This document shows positions 34,568 through 60,762 of a stretch of 64,000 nt of DNA, in pieces. The notes under the pieces are model-generated. The model made no database searches and was not told where the DNA came from. It saw only the letters and a program-made list of their open reading frames with translations. Position numbers and translations under genes: made by a program. Every line of letters starts with the position of its first letter. The first letter of the stretch is position 1. This DNA comes from a virus: the IMG/VR virus record IMGVR_UViG_3300036770_003016, one strand, 5' to 3'.

Positions 34568-35272
34568 TTAGTCCCACAGATTTCTGTAGTACTTACCAAA
34601 CAGTCTTGTACCGTTATTGATTCGTTCATTGTACTTTTCGTAACCTTCACGATCAAACTCTGCGGTGTGATTTGGTCCCCTCTCAAAAGTATAAAGAGTT
34701 GGTTTACCATTCTCATCCCACTCGCAAGGTACAGACTTCATATCATGTACACCAGTATGGAATTGTGCATCATAGTCATCGTTACATAACTGTTCAAATG
34801 CCCAAATCATTTCATCAAGAACCCATTCCCATCGTGCATGAATATCACAATGACTTTCTTTTGGTTCGTCTTGCTTATAGAAATCAAAAGTTTCTTGTGC
34901 ATCATATTCTTCATGTGTGATGCAACGAAGATGTTCTGGTACATCCTCTAAGTCTACCATAGGAGAACCATGCTTAGTCTTTTTCAACTGCTTGAGCATT
35001 GGCAGGATGATTGGAGACAATGTTGTATCCATGTTCCAAGTGTCGTACTTGTCAATCTTGACATACTCAATTCTTGGATGAACAAAATCAAGAAACTTCT
35101 GAAACCCAACACAAACAGGATTCAGAAGATTGACAAACTTCTCGTACTTGTTTTTTGGATCGTCATCAAGATTATAGATGATGTCTTTGTCTTTTTCCCA
35201 AAAACAAATTTTGGTCAAAATTGTATATGGAGACAACCAATGATTACGATATTTGCTGATGTATACTTTCAC
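34568..35272 (-). CDS. Conserved T4-like hypothetical protein
   Basis: IDKYDTWNMDTTL, WEWVLDEMIWAFEQ, LFGKYYRNLWD. Confidence 0.65.
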   Translation of the reverse strand: MKVYISKYRNHWLSPYTILTKICFWEKDKDIIYNLDDDPKNKYEKFVNLLNPVCVGFQKFLDFVHPRIEYVKIDKYDTWNMDTTLSPIILPMLKQLKKTKHGSPMVDLEDVPEHLRCITHEEYDAQETFDFYKQDEPKESHCDIHARWEWVLDEMIWAFEQLCNDDYDAQFHTGVHDMKSVPCEWDENGKPTLYTFERGPNHTAEFDREGYEKYNERINNGTRLFGKYYRNLWD

Positions 35273-35285
35273 AATGTTTTCCCAT

Positions 35286-35628
35286 AAAAAAATAAGTGCC
35301 GACTGATTGGGTGATAAGGTACAGTCGGCGAAACCTCAGCTCAGCATGCCTTAGGCAGCTAAAGCGAAACGCTCATCGTTTGCGTTTATTTTATTTACTT
35401 TTTACGACTCTCTGTGTCGGATCGTCCATCTTTCTACTCTTTGCCCTGTCGAAACCAGGTCAGGCCCATTAGGAAGCATACTAAATCTGCACTTTTTCAG
35501 TCGGGGCTATCTGCTATTATGCAGCCTACCGGCAGTCCTTGACCGATCTTCATAGTATGCTTTCTGGTGGACCTGGAGGGAATCGAACCCTCGTCCAGAA
35601 CACCTTTCAATTAACTTCATACGATCAT
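35286..35628 (-). ncRNA. ssrA: Circularly permuted (two-piece) tmRNA
   Basis: Acceptor piece ending GGTTCGATTCCCTCCAGGTCCACCA (3' end 35565) precedes the coding piece starting GGGCCTGACCTGGTTTCGACAGGG (35467); G3:U70 pair; tag ANDERFALAA* at 35383-35351. Confidence 0.92.
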
Positions 35629-35634
35629 ATTACT

Positions 35635-35663
35635 ACTATAACAGAAACTATTTATTTTGTCAA
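35635..35663 (-). promoter_or_regulatory. Sigma70-type promoter for tmRNA
   Basis: TTGACA-N17-TATAGT immediately upstream of the acceptor piece. Confidence 0.75.
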
Positions 35664-55485: not shown

Positions 55486-55560
55486 TGGCACCACTGAGAG
55501 GAATCGAACCCCTATTCTAGGTTTAGAAGACCCATGTCCTATCCGTTGAACGACAGTGGT
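55486..55560 (-). tRNA. tRNA-Arg (TCT)
   Basis: Anticodon loop CTTCTAA; encoded CCA. Confidence 0.88.
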
Positions 55561-55565
55561 ATATT

Positions 55566-55648
55566 TGGTGCGAGTGGAGGGATTCGAACCCTCAATCCAG
55601 AGGCGGCAAATTTTAAGTCTGCTGTGTATACCGTTCCACCACACTCGC
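55566..55648 (-). tRNA. tRNA-Leu (TAA)
   Basis: Loop CTTAAAA; long variable arm. Confidence 0.9.
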
Positions 55649-55693
55649 AATAAAAACATTATAACATAAATTTGTGTTGTTTACAGGTAATAT

Positions 55694-55770
55694 TGGTGCC
55701 TCAGGAGAGATTCGAACTCTCAGAATCTTGCTTCTAAGGCAAGCATGTTTACCAATTTCATCACCGAGGC
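55694..55770 (-). tRNA. tRNA-Leu (TAG), short variable loop
   Basis: CTTGC-CTTAGAA-GCAAG; 77 nt. Confidence 0.85.
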
Positions 55771-55772
55771 AT

Positions 55773-55848
55773 TGGTGCGACCTAGAGGAATCGAACCTCT
55801 TTCCATGGCTCTTCAGGCCACTGCTATGACCACATCAGCTAAAGTCGC
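55773..55848 (-). tRNA. tRNA-Phe (GAA)
   Basis: Loop CTGAAGA. Confidence 0.88.
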
Positions 55849-55849
55849 A

Positions 55850-55924
55850 TGGTGCACCGTGAAGGTTACGCTCCCTCTACCCTCTGCTTGTAAGGCAGAC
55901 GCTCTACTATTGAGCTAACGATGC
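55850..55924 (-). tRNA. tRNA-Val (TAC)
   Basis: Loop CTTACAA; atypical T-loop AGCGTAA. Confidence 0.82.
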
Positions 55925-55925
55925 G

Positions 55926-56001
55926 TGGGGTGTCCTATGAGGATCGAACTCATACTCTCTCGTTCACAGCAAGAAGTGCAGACCACTACACTAAGGACAC
56001 C
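55926..56001 (-). tRNA. tRNA-His (GTG)
   Basis: Loop CTGTGAA; G-1:C73. Confidence 0.88.
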
Positions 56002-56010
56002 AAGAGCATT

Positions 56011-56084
56011 TGGAGCGGCTAAAGAGAATCGAACTCTTAACTTCTGCTTGGAAGGCAGTGGTTTTACCATTAAACTACAGCCGC
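56011..56084 (-). tRNA. tRNA-Gly (TCC)
   Basis: Loop CTTCCAA; U73. Confidence 0.9.
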
Positions 56085-56089
56085 TTATT

Positions 56090-56398
56090 TTAATCCCAAG
56101 GTGGATAACCGCCTTGAATACAAATCATTTTCATCGGACCAGAATAATCTCTCCATTCAATTACTTTACCATTCTTATCAAGAGGCCTTAGATCAGGTAG
56201 CGCAAATGTCGTTCTACCATCACCGCCATACTTTGTACCAATAATGGAAAAGAGTGCTTCGTTTCCTTTTACTTGCATGATTTGACCACTACAAGGTGCC
56301 CAAGTACGAACACCTCTAGTTCCAGCAAACTCTGTGATTGATCCGAGCATATCACCTTCTACTGACATGCCAAGTTTTTGTAACATTTTCTTAATCAT
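56090..56398 (-). CDS. Stand-alone tail-collar domain protein
   Basis: W.PCSGQ......ALFSIIGTKYGGDGRTTFALPDLR...ICIQG.YP. Confidence 0.8.
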   Translation of the reverse strand: MIKKMLQKLGMSVEGDMLGSITEFAGTRGVRTWAPCSGQIMQVKGNEALFSIIGTKYGGDGRTTFALPDLRPLDKNGKVIEWRDYSGPMKMICIQGGYPPWD

Positions 56399-56407
56399 AT
56401 TTTCTCC

Positions 56408-56875
56408 TTAAGCAGCTAAACTTTTGTAACGATCTGCAGCGTATGATGCCGCAAACGCTCTTGGTTTTACCATAGGAATTACATTACAAGTTCCACGAAT
56501 ATAACCAATTGCTTCATTGATCACGCAATTTGAACCATGCATTTCACTTGGGTTGATATCAAGGTGGACTTCTACATCACGACCTTCCAGAACATCAGCC
56601 AACTTTAAATACATTTCAGATACCTTGTATACTTCATTCATCAAACGGTATCTCGGACGATCTTCTTTTTGGTCATAGTCTCTTTCACGAACAACTTCAC
56701 CAAAAAGTTTGCAACCGTGTTTTCCATCTTTGTGAACAACTATAGCAATTATATAGTCAGCATGCCACACTTCATTCACTCTTAATCTTTCAGAATCACA
56801 TCCAAGATAAATTTTTGTTTCTGGCGATTGTCTTGAGATGTAATCTTTCACTTCTTGTAAATTTATCTTGAACAT
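56408..56875 (-). CDS. RNase H-like YkuK (DUF458) family protein
   Basis: IYLGCDS, RLMNEV, EVHLDIN, KP.AFAASYAAD. Confidence 0.8.
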   Translation of the reverse strand: MFKINLQEVKDYISRQSPETKIYLGCDSERLRVNEVWHADYIIAIVVHKDGKHGCKLFGEVVRERDYDQKEDRPRYRLMNEVYKVSEMYLKLADVLEGRDVEVHLDINPSEMHGSNCVINEAIGYIRGTCNVIPMVKPRAFAASYAADRYKSLAA

Positions 56876-56889
56876 GATATCTCCTTAAT

Positions 56890-56963
56890 TGGCCTCGGTG
56901 GACAGAATCGAACTGCCATGACTGGTTTTGGAGACCAGCGTAATGCCTTTATACGACACCGAG
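56890..56963 (-). tRNA. tRNA-Trp (CCA)
   Basis: Loop CTCCAAA. Confidence 0.88.
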
Positions 56964-56980
56964 ATTAAAACTACTTATAA

Positions 56981-57054
56981 TGGTCCTTCCTGATGGTTAC
57001 GATCCACCGTCTAGCGGTTATCAACCGCTTGCTCTGCCATTGAGCTAAGGAAGG
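56981..57054 (-). tRNA. tRNA-Ile (GAT)
   Basis: Loop TTGATAA; atypical T-loop ATCGTAA. Confidence 0.82.
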
Positions 57055-57056
57055 AT

Positions 57057-57131
57057 TGGCACCACCTAAAGGAATCAAACCCTTTCTACAATGTCCGTAG
57101 CATTGCGTGCTATTCAGTACACTAAGGTGGT
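57057..57131 (-). tRNA. tRNA-Arg (ACG)
   Basis: Loop CTACGGA. Confidence 0.85.
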
Positions 57132-57138
57132 ATAATTA

Positions 57139-57215
57139 TGGTCTGGGTAGAGAGGATCGAACTCCCGACCTCCTGCTCCCAAAGCAGGCGCACTACCTGG
57201 CTGTGCTATACCCAG
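57139..57215 (-). tRNA. tRNA-Pro (TGG)
   Basis: Loop TTTGGGA. Confidence 0.9.
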
Positions 57216-57224
57216 ACGAAACTT

Positions 57225-57299
57225 TGGTGCCCCCGGAGAGATTTGAACTCCCGACCGCTCGCTTACAAGGCGAGAACTCTACCACTGAGCTACAGGGGC
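57225..57299 (-). tRNA. tRNA-Thr (TGT)
   Basis: Loop CTTGTAA. Confidence 0.9.
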
Positions 57300-57304
57300 A
57301 AAAC

Positions 57305-57381
57305 TGGTGGCGATGGAAGGATTCGAGCCTTCGATCTTTTCCGTATGAAGGAACTGCATTTGACCGCTATGCTACATCGCC
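57305..57381 (-). tRNA. tRNA-Met (CAT), elongator-like
   Basis: Loop TTCATAC; GGCG start. Confidence 0.82.
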
Positions 57382-57551
57382 ATTAGTGAGAGTACTATCA
57401 TATCTGTTTAAGGACACTTTTCAGTCCTCTCTGCATCCCTTAGACTCACCACAAGTCTCGCACCAACGGCGTGGATTCATGCAAAGATGAGTACTACCAC
57501 GATAGTCTGGCTGCTGGTTAGGCACTTCGTTCTACAGACTCTCACTAATGG
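57380..57551 (-). ncRNA. Inverted-repeat-bounded structured RNA cassette
   Basis: Perfect 14-bp IR CCATTAGTGAGAGT...ACTCTCACTAATGG linking tRNA-Asn CCA to tRNA-Met 5' end. Confidence 0.55.
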
Positions 57552-57623
57552 CTCCAGAGGTAGGGATCGAACCTACGACACACGGATTAACAGTCCGCTG
57601 ATCTACCGCTGATCTACTCTGGA
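57549..57623 (-). tRNA. tRNA-Asn (GTT)
   Basis: Loop CTGTTAA. Confidence 0.9.
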
Positions 57624-57624
57624 A

Positions 57625-57818
57625 CAGGTGCTTCCTCTCTGCGGTGGTAATTATAGTGTCTCCAGTTTCGAACCCTTCAACGACACCTTCCACCCACTTC
57701 ACGACCAAAGAGAATTCTCGCATTGCCAGCGCCATTTGCTCCAAATGGTAAGGTCCTGTGGGTATCACACCACTTCTCGACATGCGGACCACACTAGCCG
57801 TTGATTAGACGGCACGTT
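57625..57818 (-). ncRNA. Unidentified GC-rich structured RNA(s)
   Basis: Non-coding, GC-rich, several hairpins, between tRNA-fMet and tRNA-Asn. Confidence 0.45.
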
Positions 57819-57892
57819 TGGTAGCGGGTAGCCGAATTGCACGACTAACTGTAGCTTATGAGACTACCGAGATACTATTTCTCTAACCCGCA
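57819..57892 (-). tRNA. tRNA-fMet-like (CAT)
   Basis: 1:72 mismatch (T:T), GCGGG acceptor, loop CTCATAA; lacks the three G:C anticodon pairs. Confidence 0.7.
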
Positions 57893-57897
57893 AAACT

Positions 57898-57972
57898 TGG
57901 CGGTCCCAACGAGATTCGAACTCGTTCCTGCGCCGTGACAGGGCGCTATACTCGCCGATATACTATGGAACC
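57898..57972 (-). tRNA. tRNA-Asp (GTC)
   Basis: Loop CTGTCAC. Confidence 0.9.
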
Positions 57973-57979
57973 ATAAAAC

Positions 57980-58054
57980 TGGTAGGCGCACGGAGAATCG
58001 AACTCCGGTCAATAGATTAAAAGTCTACTGCTTTAACCCCTAAGCTATACGCCC
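57980..58054 (-). tRNA. tRNA-Lys (TTT)
   Basis: Loop CTTTTAA. Confidence 0.9.
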
Positions 58055-58060
58055 AAAATT

Positions 58061-58147
58061 TGGTGCTATGTCCTACTTGCAATAGGACTCTAGTCGCAGT
58101 TTGAGAGGCATCGTTCCTAGGATCGAGAGGCACATTCTGCCACAGCG
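58061..58147 (-). ncRNA. tRNA-like RNA without recognisable anticodon arm
   Basis: GCTGTG/CATAGC-A-CCA end, GGCA-GAATG-TGCC arm, TCCTA-TTGCAAG-TAGGA T-like arm. Confidence 0.5.
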
Positions 58148-58167
58148 TAAAGCGACGCTGTGCATCT

Positions 58168-58243
58168 TGGTGGAGAGTATCGGGTTCGAACCGATGACCT
58201 CCTGCTTGCAAAGCAGGCGTTCTCCCAACTGAACTAACTCCCC
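58168..58243 (-). tRNA. tRNA-Ala (TGC)
   Basis: Loop TTTGCAA; G3:U70. Confidence 0.92.
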
Positions 58244-58301
58244 ATATTGAAACACACTATGCCACGCTCTGAACCTGGACTCTTAGTAATGTGTTCGAAT
58301 A

Positions 58302-58465
58302 TGGTGTTGCTTGTTCCCGTCCGTCGGGCCAATGTGTCGGGCTTTATTGCTCTCTACCTATTCAGCCATTCCCATCGTCGAGAGTCAATGGGAAACATCT
58401 TGACACACCATCTAACTTAGATTACTTTGCCATTAGGCGTTTCATCTACTAGCAGTCAGCAAACC
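58302..58465 (-). ncRNA. ~164-nt CCA-terminated structured RNA
   Basis: 5' GGTTTGCT pairs with 3' AGCAACACCA; bounded by IR cassettes. Confidence 0.45.
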
Positions 58466-58568
58466 ATATTGAAGCACACTGACAGTATCGAAACTGCCCA
58501 CACCGCCGAAAGACGATGCTAGGTCCACTCCCAAGGCCGGCGCCATCTAGCCTTAGTGTGCTTCAATA

Positions 58569-58719
58569 TGGTTGCTGGTTACGACTCCAGCACAATCGTA
58601 TCGTCATTGTCGCTCGAATCACGCCTGTGTCTTCGTCAAAGGCTCGCCGCCTTTATACACGCTTCAGGTATTCGTGTTCTGGGATCAGCCCGAGGACTTT
58701 TCGGTCCCCACTTACTCCC
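58569..58719 (-). ncRNA. ~150-nt CCA-terminated structured RNA
   Basis: GGGGACCGAAAAGTCCTC hairpin; 3' TGCTGG-AGTCGTAA-CCAGCA-ACCA minihelix. Confidence 0.45.
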
Positions 58720-58821
58720 ATATTCAAGCACACTCGTTGTAGACTTTCTGTTAGTATCCCTTACGGGTCCCCGCTGGCAGCCCCAATGGCTGGGCCGGGC
58801 GACTAAGAATGTGCTTGAATA

Positions 58822-58907
58822 TGGTGGGCTTCGTTGGAATCGAACCAACGCTTTCTCTTTTCGATTGCTCTACTCAGAGTCGTGCCCCCAGCAAACACCA
58901 GAAGCCC
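58822..58907 (-). ncRNA. tRNA-like RNA with expanded anticodon loop
   Basis: Perfect GGGCTTC/GAAGCCC acceptor, D arm, canonical GTTCGATTC T arm, 17-nt anticodon-position loop. Confidence 0.7.
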
Positions 58908-59000
58908 AAATAAACTTTACCATATTGAAGCGCACTTAGACTACTACCCTACTCGAGCATAGCCTTTCAGAGCTTCACCCAAATGCACTTCAGTATGGTA

Positions 59001-59114
59001 TGGTAGCAGGAGTGGTTGCGATCCACTGCAGAGCACCGGGATTAAGGCCTTGTAGTTGGCTTGCTCTAGAGTCACCAATCTCTCAGAGGACCAATGACCG
59101 GCTTCATACCTGCC
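59001..59114 (-). ncRNA. tRNA-like RNA with two enlarged arms
   Basis: GGCAGG/CCTGCT-A-CCA acceptor; AGTGG-ATCGCAA-CCACT T arm; long internal hairpins. Confidence 0.55.
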
Positions 59115-59209
59115 CTACTACCATATTGAAACACACTGGTCGAAGCAGATACGGAAGACACCCGCTGCTGTTTCCGATGCCTAGTCGGACTCGTCAATGC
59201 GCTTCAATA

Positions 59210-59297
59210 TGGTGGGTGGTGATGGTAACGCTCCACGAGGCAACTTCCGATCTTATTATGCCGACGGTTTTACAGACCGCTGACCGGGGCACCACCC
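59210..59297 (-). tRNA. Non-canonical D-armless tRNA-Tyr (GTA)
   Basis: GGGTGGTG/CACCACCC-A-CCA; GCGGT-CTGTAAA-ACCGT; long variable arm; only a 9-nt connector in place of the D arm. Confidence 0.65.
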
Positions 59298-59302
59298 GTA
59301 TT

Positions 59303-59379
59303 TGGTACACCGTAGGGGATTTGAACCCCTGATCTTCTCCGTGAAAGGGAGATGTCCTAGGCCGCTAGACGAACGGTGC
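59303..59379 (-). tRNA. tRNA-Glu (TTC)
   Basis: Loop CTTTCAC. Confidence 0.9.
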
Positions 59380-59429: not shown

Positions 59430-59482
59430 ATTATACACTAAACCTACGAATTGTCAACTACTACTGTTGTAAAAAAACAACA
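59430..59482 (-). promoter_or_regulatory. Internal tRNA-operon promoter with upstream palindrome
   Basis: TTGACA-N16-TATAAT; TGTTG-N8-CAACA at 59465-59482. Confidence 0.78.
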
Positions 59483-59485
59483 GAG

Positions 59486-59563
59486 TGGAAGTACGGGTCG
59501 GATTCGAACCGACGAATCAAGAGTTTTGCAGGCTCCGCCATTAGACCGCTCTGGTACCGTACT
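59486..59563 (-). tRNA. tRNA-Cys (GCA)
   Basis: Loop CTGCAAA; U73. Confidence 0.88.
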
Positions 59564-59568
59564 ATAAC

Positions 59569-59658
59569 TGGTGGAGAATCAGGGAGTCGAACCCTGTGAC
59601 CCTATTTCTAGAATCTACGGATTAGCAATCCGCTGCATTACCATCCTGCCCATTCTCC
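59569..59658 (-). tRNA. tRNA-Ser (GCT)
   Basis: Loop TTGCTAA; long variable arm. Confidence 0.9.
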
Positions 59659-59662
59659 GAAT

Positions 59663-59754
59663 TGGTGGAAGCGGTGAGATTCGAACTCACGGGCCACTTT
59701 CATGACCGACAGTTTTCAAGACTGTTGCAATAAACCGGACTCTGCCACACTTCC
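59663..59754 (-). tRNA. tRNA-Ser (TGA)
   Basis: Loop CTTGAAA; long variable arm. Confidence 0.9.
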
Positions 59755-59825
59755 ATATGGAAACACATTGCCAAGTAGAGCCATGGTATCTTGTGCGGGA
59801 GCAACCCCTACAATGTGCTTTCATA

Positions 59826-59920
59826 TGGTCCTTGGACTAGGATTCGAACCTAGATCATCCCCTCATCTAGAGGCATCGCCGAGGTATAAGCTCGGAGTTT
59901 TACCATTAAACTATCCAAGG
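59826..59920 (-). tRNA. tRNA with TAT (Ile) anticodon and long variable arm
   Basis: CCGAG-CTTATAC-CTCGG; ~25-nt variable region; 95 nt. Confidence 0.75.
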
Positions 59921-59922
59921 AT

Positions 59923-60000
59923 TGGTGGGGGATACTGGATTCGAACCAGTGAATGTCGGATTCAAAATCCGATGCCTTAGACCAGCTTGGCTAATCCCCT
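59923..60000 (-). tRNA. tRNA-Gln (TTG)
   Basis: Loop TTTTGAA; weak 1:72 pair. Confidence 0.88.
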
Positions 60001-60002
60001 AA

Positions 60003-60027
60003 TAAACAACACAAATTTTTAAAGAGC
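60003..60027 (-). promoter_or_regulatory. rrn-like boxA antitermination element, copy 1
   Basis: GCTCTTTAAAAATTTGTGTTGTTTA, resembling boxA TGCTCTTTAACA. Confidence 0.7.
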
Positions 60028-60029
60028 GG

Positions 60030-60067
60030 AAAACAAAAACCCCCGAATTTTTTAGGTTCGGGGGTTT
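60030..60067 (-). terminator. Attenuator terminator upstream of tRNA operon
   Basis: 11-bp stem AAACCCCCGAA/TTCGGGGGTTT followed by TTGTTTT. Confidence 0.85.
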
Positions 60068-60092
60068 GTGTGAAAAACGATTAAAACTATTT

Positions 60093-60209
60093 TTACGCAA
60101 ACCCCCCAATATCACTAAAATTGCAATTTGGTGAGCGATACTCTGCCTGCCATGTGCCTGTTGCACTGGCCTTGAGAGTAATTGTAGTGAAATGTAAGGA
60201 AGTTTTCAT
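60093..60209 (-). CDS. Putative attenuator leader peptide (38 aa)
   Basis: MKTSLHFTTITLKASATGTWQAEYRSPNCNFSDIGGFA*; last codons overlap the antiterminator GGGGGTTTG. Confidence 0.65.
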   Translation of the reverse strand: MKTSLHFTTITLKASATGTWQAEYRSPNCNFSDIGGFA

Positions 60210-60218
60210 AGTTTTATA

Positions 60219-60247
60219 AGTGTATCACTGTATTTAGTAAAAGTCAA
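60219..60247 (-). promoter_or_regulatory. Sigma70-type promoter of tRNA operon leader
   Basis: TTGACT-N17-TACACT; late-promoter-like CTAAATA within the spacer. Confidence 0.6.
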
Positions 60248-60276: not shown

Positions 60277-60762
60277 TTACGGTTGAATAGGCCAATTCAC
60301 TATCTTTGGGAATTCCGATTGTTGAGGTATTTCTCTTAAAAATTTTCGGTATTCAATCCATTGTTGTTTAATGGCATCTGGAATAGGAGAATCCGGCATA
60401 ACAGTCCAATCTGATTTTGCCAATAATTCGTCTCTCTTCTTCCTCACTTCACTTGATTTATAATCGAGCATTTCTTGTCTACTCTCTGGAGATCGTGGAG
60501 TGGGAACATGATTCTTATACCATTTGCCATCATCACCTTTAGTTGGAACACCCTCACTATATTCGTATTCAATCCAATCATATTCTATTTGTAAATGATG
60601 AACTAAAACATATCCACTAGGCAAAGGTTTAGTTTCATCATAAAATTTATCTAAATTTTCATCTACTTTAGCTATCTCTGGATACTCTTTAATCAAGATT
60701 CCTTCAGGTACTGGATACTCCAATACATTATCATTAGAATCTATTTTAGCAAAAAATCTCAT
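60277..60762 (-). CDS. Tail fibre assembly chaperone
   Basis: VRKKRDELLAKSDWTVMPDSP...W.EYR..LREIPQQ..FP....WP. Confidence 0.8.
   Translation of the reverse strand: MRFFAKIDSNDNVLEYPVPEGILIKEYPEIAKVDENLDKFYDETKPLPSGYVLVHHLQIEYDWIEYEYSEGVPTKGDDGKWYKNHVPTPRSPESRQEMLDYKSSEVRKKRDELLAKSDWTVMPDSPIPDAIKQQWIEYRKFLREIPQQSEFPKIVNWPIQP

Follow-up and report, generated by a model that had tools for sequence, protein, structure and literature searches.

We describe a short leader ORF, an antiterminator and an intrinsic terminator that precede the tRNA array of a T4-like freshwater phage and that probably act together as an attenuator of the trp/his type, one that samples the decoding of nearly all amino acids and adds read-through into the tRNA genes. 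The anatomy is conserved in related viruses, the two alternative helices covary, and the amino-acid coverage of the leader peptide is under selection. We infer that the ORF is translated, that the switch operates in vivo and that it is closed by feedback; extra tRNAs would probably be made when ribosomes are slowed at almost any codon. No prior description of leader-peptide attenuation of phage tRNA arrays was found in the literature searched, most subscription papers lying outside it, and we regard the element as a variant of leader-peptide attenuation that is real, conserved and selected, and for which this mechanism is likely.

Results

Genome setting and anatomy of the leader

The window, by which we mean the whole 64-kb stretch of DNA that was analysed, is part of a 120-kb linear virus record (IMG/VR IMGVR_UViG_3300036770_003016) that is about 68% complete. 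Its source is a T4-like freshwater phage. Among the genes of the record are those of what we take, from the list of open reading frames, to be T4-like capsid, sheath, portal and baseplate proteins; near-identical DNA was found in freshwater and subsurface metagenomes, all the runs used being contigs, RNA runs shared no more than 4-5% of the sequence words of the stretch, and a gene within the tRNA array has its closest cultured matches at just 57% identity. The phage also encodes a permuted tmRNA (35260-35657, minus strand), which has a promoter to itself at 35663 and whose betaproteobacterial type is a hint that the host is a betaproteobacterium. A search for RtcB in the assembled part of the genome came up empty, which at about 68% completeness proves little; a leader of the kind described here occurs once in that same part. 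The leader lies downstream of a tail-assembly gene (stop at 60277), and its features are as follows.

60219-60247, minus strand: sigma70-type promoter, with -35 box TTGACT (60247-60242), a 17-nt spacer and an extended -10 box TACACT (60224-60219, TG extension)
60238-60231, minus strand: T4-like late promoter motif, inside the spacer of the sigma70-type promoter
60093-60209, minus strand: leader ORF of 38 codons, near-leaderless, its ATG at 60209 lying 9 nt from the -10 box
60197-60210, minus strand: possible protector strand, the 5' end of the ORF, which pairs with the antiterminator in the minimum free energy fold of the naked RNA
60114-60206, minus strand: predicted sensing window (codons about 2-32), in which a stalled ribosome would leave the antiterminator free
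60093-60109, minus strand: antiterminator strand, the last ORF codons and the stop, which pairs with 60070-60057
60030-60070, minus strand: intrinsic terminator, with 5' arm 60070-60057, loop 60056-60048 and 3' arm 60047-60034, followed by a U tract
60014-60027, minus strand: boxA-like element (rrn-type Nus antitermination) directly past the terminator; a second copy lies at 59407-59394

Promoter, ORF, terminator, U tract and first tRNA are all found on the minus strand where the original prediction had put them, and our recount gave the same 38 codons, 19 of the 20 amino-acid types (Val being absent) and 28 distinct codons. A comparable promoter stands ahead of most homologous leaders. The 8-mer of the late motif occurs eight times on the coding strand and never on the other, one copy being located upstream of the tail sheath gene. 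The 38-codon leader holds no tandem run of a sensed residue. Finding 19 of 20 amino-acid types in this single ORF has a probability of 0.023 if phage amino-acid frequencies are assumed, of 0.15 if these are uniform, and of 0.08 in stop-free shuffles; because the value ranges from 0.02 to 0.15 depending on the null, the coverage of this one ORF is modestly unusual and the single copy alone is not convincing. It is the conserved family of leaders that establishes the element as real.

Terminator, antiterminator and modelled ribosome positions

The ORF end had been claimed to be complementary to the 5' arm of the terminator, and the two indeed pair at -20.2 kcal/mol, compared with -6.6 +/- 2.4 kcal/mol for shuffles and -3.6 kcal/mol for the best upstream stretch of the ORF. 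In the terminator core, 60067-60057 pairs with 60047-60037. The antiterminator hairpin (-20.8 kcal/mol) and the terminator (-17.4 kcal/mol) have this 5' arm in common, which makes them mutually exclusive. Base 60097, in the last codon, is a mismatch in the antiterminator helix; it is present in four independent runs and therefore is not an assembly error, and it is through this single base that Val is missing from the leader.

Ribosome stalls were modelled by constrained folding with footprints of 9-15 nt, and since equilibrium folding differs from co-transcriptional folding, all switching figures given here are model values. For stalls at codons 2-30 the modelled probability of the terminator generally stays under 0.35, about four codons giving 0.46-0.67; from codon 31-33 onward it reaches 0.99-1.0, and it is 0.69 for this leader without any ribosome. 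Folding with the 3' end of the ORF masked or free, as had been suggested, gave the anticipated result: a ribosome at the stop would lead to the terminator and an upstream stall to the antiterminator. Sensing is confined to codons that lie upstream of the antiterminator, here about codons 2-32. According to the model this leader would sample 17 amino acids in elongation, with Asp33 borderline and with Val and internal (elongator) Met unsampled; the claim that a stall on almost any tRNA would trip the switch survives at the amino-acid level for these codons and has to be given up for Val and elongator Met.

Pairing of the protector strand may favour termination when the ribosome is absent, and in this leader it amounts to -19.2 against -11.3 +/- 2.4 in shuffles (z about -3). 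The data give no support to a protector helix universal to the family, z falling below -2 in just 9 of 34 lineages. The boxA-like element, to which we ascribe its presumed function by resemblance to rrn boxA, occurs at most 130 nt from the terminator in 17 of 33 lineages. The Rfam search gave a sub-threshold match of Thr_leader to the terminator part (26.9 bits, cut-off 55).

Relatives and their amino-acid inventory

Relatives were gathered as 80 viral loci through the neighbouring RNase H-like gene and, beyond these, through patterns of RNA geometry; peptide content was never a search criterion. Viral and metagenome matches yielded 134 leaders with 80 distinct peptides, nearly all directly 5' of tRNA genes. 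All 20 amino acids are present in 63 of the 74 distinct leaders of at least 30 codons, compared with 0.93 expected from stop-free shuffles of the same DNA, and the two other reading frames of the same leaders are complete in 0 of 148 cases. At uniform frequencies, completeness would be expected in 0.2% of 31-mers and in 3.7% of 40-mers. When the leaders are reduced to 34 lineage representatives (clusters at 70% identity), 26 are complete and 0.39 are expected; these lineages form one cluster at 40% identity and share ancestry, so the counts are not independent events. The peptide of this window is at most 50% identical to any of the 34. The near-complete set precedes arrays for most or all amino acids, a match at the level of amino acids and not strictly of anticodons.

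The switch geometry is equally regular. In all 73 leaders measured, stop codon and terminator are 24-35 nt apart and no stretch pairs better with the terminator 5' arm than the ORF end. Over 12 neighbour-found lineages, cognate antiterminator pairs average -19.7 kcal/mol and swapped ones -13.5 kcal/mol, a difference whose size is inflated because the swap and pair counts for neighbour-found leaders use leaders pre-filtered at a pairing of -15 or better. The check on this is a survey unfiltered for pairing or peptide, which located 39 terminator-like hairpins ahead of tRNAs in the neighbour-found loci: a short ORF is present at 24 of these sites, an antiterminator at least as strong as -15 kcal/mol at 20, and a peptide with 19-20 amino-acid types at 19. 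The terminator helix is paired in 117 of 120 cells, with compensatory changes, across 12 lineages, and the column counts include compensatory pairs in both helices; in one column, three lineages change U-A to C-G in the antiterminator and have G-U in the terminator. Modelled termination has lineage means of 0.74 with no ribosome, 0.44 with an early stall and 0.95 with a ribosome at the stop, the early-stall value lying below the at-stop value in 29 of 33 lineages; some lineages (L035, L175 and L090) show little modelled switching. The alignment of homologous leaders that the original prediction called for thus finds the short uORF, its diverse codons and the covariation of terminator and antiterminator all conserved.

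Other searches covered cultured phages and cellular genomes. A blastn search of the leader against cultured phages matched the tRNA-Gln alone, and a first, tight RNA pattern gave one match, unrelated. A strict pattern had no match in the bacterial and archaeal genomes searched, and a looser one had 108 matches there, none with a 20/20 leader; the patterns are narrow, and these results therefore do not establish absence from bacteria. As a positive control, the same RNA pattern recovered from bacterial genomes leaders rich in Phe, Tyr and Trp before a DAHP synthase gene. Two such leaders, L196 and L237, both of 20 codons, precede this gene in Verrucomicrobia and Kiritimatiellae genomes and are ordinary aromatic amino-acid attenuators. 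A further group of 23-24-codon leaders with the same antiterminator geometry was seen in bacterial genomes (L217, L249 and L260, with similar peptides in L190, L209, L279 and L296); several come from Patescibacteria, dprA lies 240-275 nt downstream in the three checked, and Rfam gave no match.

The cultured Xanthomonas phages BUDD and X1 carry an unannotated 39-codon leader with antiterminator and terminator ahead of their tRNA arrays (L300:6783-6955 and L303:783-955); in BUDD, whose accession is ON758385, the leader itself spans L300:6783-6902. These leaders hold 18 and 19 amino-acid types, respectively, and are located 29-31 nt before the terminator and about 320 nt before the first tRNA. 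The BUDD model switches (0.99 naked, 0.13-0.19 stalled, 1.0 at the stop) and the X1 model does not, so both are regarded as candidates only. No leader was detected in the regions taken from DLP6, BUCT-ZZ01, RHph_I1_18, Astolliot and D484, some of which may miss the head of the array. Leaders with 17 and 11 amino-acid types also occur directly before tRNA clusters on contigs of a Granulosicoccus MAG (L227) and a Bacteroidota MAG (L216), which may be phage contigs in bacterial bins.

What selection keeps

By these comparisons, selection acts on composition more than on sequence. Leaders range from 31 to 47 aa in length, the positions of Trp, Cys, His and Tyr differ between families, and in lineage L105 the antiterminator is read in another frame and the peptide still holds 20 of 20 amino acids. 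Among close relatives, single-copy residues change at a rate of 0.11 and repeated ones at 0.22 (odds ratio 0.56, stratified by amino acid), and where a singleton has changed, its amino acid is still found elsewhere in the peptide in 92 of 103 cases. The pN/pS of the leader ORFs is 0.49. A W-Q-A-x-Y-R motif is found mid-peptide in the main family alone and is absent from other 20/20 families. Strain variants of this phage retain frame and stop: in one strain four positions differ (Ala14, Thr17, Ala22, Asn30), each occupied by an amino acid that the peptide holds more than once, another has Gly18 replaced by Val, which makes the inventory complete, and antiterminator and terminator are unaltered in all three strain variants.

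Within the sensing window, 19 amino acids are over-represented across lineages and Val is present in just 16 of 34. In most cases Val arises as a by-product of the G/U-rich antiterminator, a place where stalls escape sensing; its restoration upstream when the antiterminator lacks it was considered and is not significant (Fisher P 0.12).

The leader codons are dominated by CAG, GAG, CGC, GCC and GGC. Their GC3 is 0.35 versus 0.17 in the genes of this phage, and the share of CAG and GAG is 68-75% versus 18-19%, the reference for both being this phage's genome alone; the shift persists outside the shared motif. The G/C-ending codons may mean that host isoacceptors are sampled. The interior of the leader has a mean folding z of -1.4, and part of the GC may be there for the sake of RNA structure. 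We rejected a strict match of codons to anticodons, since many of the leader's codons are wobble-read and the array has no cognate tRNA for Gly GGC.

The tRNA array and its promoters

On the minus strand, 24 tRNA genes are clustered between 60000 and 55486, and there is one further tRNA-Met.

59486-60000, minus strand: the first five tRNAs (Gln, Ile-UAU, Ser, Ser, Cys), separated from the attenuator by no further promoter
59430-59457, minus strand: internal consensus sigma70 promoter (12/12 match), which would bypass the attenuator for the distal tRNAs
55486-59379, minus strand: distal tRNA array, 19 tRNAs called by ARAGORN and an atypical Tyr-like gene at 59298-59211

The first block and the distal array, including the Tyr-like gene, cover all 20 amino acids. 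The Tyr-like gene has a GTA anticodon loop and a CCA end and is called by neither ARAGORN nor Rfam; its assignment is a reading of this loop, and would complete the 20 amino acids of the array.

The internal promoter for the distal tRNAs that had been anticipated at 59430 is borne out by its full consensus match. Across the family, 27 of 32 lineages have sigma70-like promoters beyond the terminator, in 8 of them ahead of the first tRNA, and such sites number 53 in sense and 3 in antisense orientation. Their frequency means that the attenuator is a booster on a basal supply, not an on-switch. The notion of a leader that switches on the phage tRNA operon is therefore kept in part: a conserved leader attenuator is there, and it is not the on/off control of the operon, only five tRNAs depending on it in this phage.

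Several other features of the array deserve mention. Between 58242 and 59828 (minus strand) are five to six cassettes, each bracketed by the same inverted repeat of about 14-17 bp and each enclosing a different, unassigned structured RNA; the repeats are possibly processing stems, and both of their arms occur in six related arrays. A tRNA-like RNA at 58823-58907 (minus strand; Rfam tRNA, 31.9 bits) has an enlarged D arm and no clear anticodon arm. The tRNA-Ile at 59826-59920 (minus strand) combines a UAU anticodon with a long variable arm, unusual for bacteria, and the same anticodon is found in 17 related arrays and in phage DLP6. An RNase H-like gene (PF04308; 56408-56875, minus strand) lies inside the array; tRNA genes adjoin it on both sides in almost every one of 80 related loci, an arrangement suggesting that it takes part in tRNA processing. 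Partial leaders with 13-15 amino-acid types precede partial tRNA blocks in L079, L112, L118, L131 and L136; that of L079 (4810-4932) is Leu-rich and precedes two Leu tRNAs, and the same genome carries a complete leader as well.

Discussion

The leaders trpL, hisL, pheL, leuL and thrL, the multivalent ilvL (ilvGMEDA) and pheM (pheST) are leader-peptide transcription attenuators. The phage element has in common with amino-acid operon attenuators a short ORF, an antiterminator that overlaps the ORF end, a terminator with U tract, and an output set by ribosome position. It differs from them in content and target: theirs are runs of one to three amino acids ahead of biosynthetic or synthetase genes, whereas the phage leader contains almost every amino acid about once and controls phage tRNA genes. 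Every anatomical feature of a ribosome-mediated attenuator that we tested for was found, masking by the ribosome in silico. In T-box riboswitches, terminator and antiterminator are set by tRNA charging, through direct binding of one uncharged tRNA and with no ORF; Rfam gave no T-box match here at the gathering score or at E up to 1.

By analogy, the nearest broad sensor is the whiB7/wblC uORF of Actinobacteria and the nearest multipurpose uORF is toiL. In the former, stalling leads to antitermination, and knock-down of many amino-acid, tRNA and synthetase genes activates it; the uORF is variable in sequence, and its composition sets the response (10.1101/2023.06.02.543512). Unlike the phage leader, it is enriched in alanine and controls a bacterial transcription factor, with no complete inventory and no tRNA array. 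The toiL uORF (E. coli topAI-yjhQ) likewise reports stalls at different positions (PMC12121999), but it works by translational attenuation with Rho-dependent termination, senses antibiotics and controls a toxin-antitoxin pair.

In the mechanism that we propose, RNA polymerase would start 2-3 nt before the ATG, with a ribosome following. When all codons are read promptly, the ribosome at the stop would cover the G-rich antiterminator, the terminator would form, and transcription would end before tRNA-Gln. A stall or slow decoding within codons about 2-32 would instead allow the antiterminator to pair with the 5' arm of the terminator, upon which polymerase would pass boxA and enter the tRNA array. 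Newly made phage tRNAs would then ease the stall, which amounts to negative feedback. Downstream promoters would provide the basal supply of most tRNAs and the leader an inducible boost, the leader being the only dedicated route to the first five tRNAs in this phage.

What slows the ribosome is a separate matter. The attenuator may mainly be a counter-defence sensor of host tRNA cleavage (by systems of the PrrC, PARIS/AriB and retron PtuAB types) that supplies replacements, a refinement which we put forward tentatively and somewhat lean against. Phages are indeed rescued by their tRNAs from retron-Eco7 and from other systems, the rescue varying with the strength of the promoter (PMC11555353). 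In the T5-like tRNA-rich region, likewise, phage tRNAs replace host tRNAs cleaved by retron-Eco7, PrrC and PARIS, and the expression level matters; this region differs in being described as driven by a strong promoter, attenuation going unmentioned (PMC11555353). Coverage of all amino acids would suit an unpredictable target, and an added tRNA should cure the loss of a tRNA, not the lack of an amino acid. The G/C-ending leader codons could be taken as a sampling of host isoacceptors, although the single-genome reference and the possible structural role of GC noted above weaken this argument. The same results, moreover, fit nuclease attack, general tRNA decay or starvation alike, and unconditional promoters also serve most of the tRNAs.

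We find it unlikely that the leader is a general sensor of translation stress or timing in the manner of toiL or whiB7, answering to any slowing or uncoupling of ribosomes (antibiotics, toxins, late ribosome competition) with composition secondary. Any stall at codons 2-32 does flip the model, the late promoter motif overlaps the sigma70 promoter, and stalls at differing positions let toiL sense antibiotics of several classes (PMC12121999); such a sensor would nevertheless have no need of a complete inventory, which is kept and repaired, and without any ribosome the model favours termination (0.69 here, 0.74 on average).

It is less probable still, indeed very unlikely, that the peptide is itself a functional product or, by its W-Q-A-x-Y-R motif, a nascent-chain arrest peptide of the TnaC/ErmCL type. 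A pN/pS below one half and a motif common to the main family could be read in that way, but this is countered by the spread of lengths, the lack of the motif in several 20/20 families, the shifting positions of the rare residues and the complete inventory of L105 in another frame; the leader peptide, furthermore, has no match in Pfam. The least probable reading, a plain terminator of the upstream tail-fibre transcript next to a chance or vestigial ORF, with the tRNAs run from other promoters, would account for the finding of no other terminator between the tail-assembly gene and the array, for the common downstream promoters and for a composition not very unlikely in a single ORF, but it appears largely refuted by the family data, in which ORF, spacing, antiterminator and 20/20 content are conserved across 34 lineages, and by the dedicated promoter before the ORF.

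With the element understood as an attenuator that responds to slow decoding, the principle of attenuation reaches beyond one amino acid to nearly all of them, and beyond enzyme genes to genes for tRNA. The purpose of large phage tRNA arrays is debated, the proposals being that they compensate for codon usage, replace host tRNA as it decays or allow escape from anticodon nucleases. Synthesis of tRNA conditional on slow decoding points to supply on demand, and whatever trips the switch during infection is what the tRNAs are for, which makes the question of the arrays testable. At about 200 nt, the cassette might also serve as a portable reporter for damage to tRNA or for translation stress. It is conceivable, if rather less than an even chance in our estimation, that phages gauge the whole tRNA pool of the host by means of a pangram-like leader, tuned to the codons that the host reads, and that they answer defence-driven destruction of tRNA with an on-demand, self-limiting and full replacement set. 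If this is true, counter-defence would gain a sensing layer made of RNA and a 38-codon ORF.
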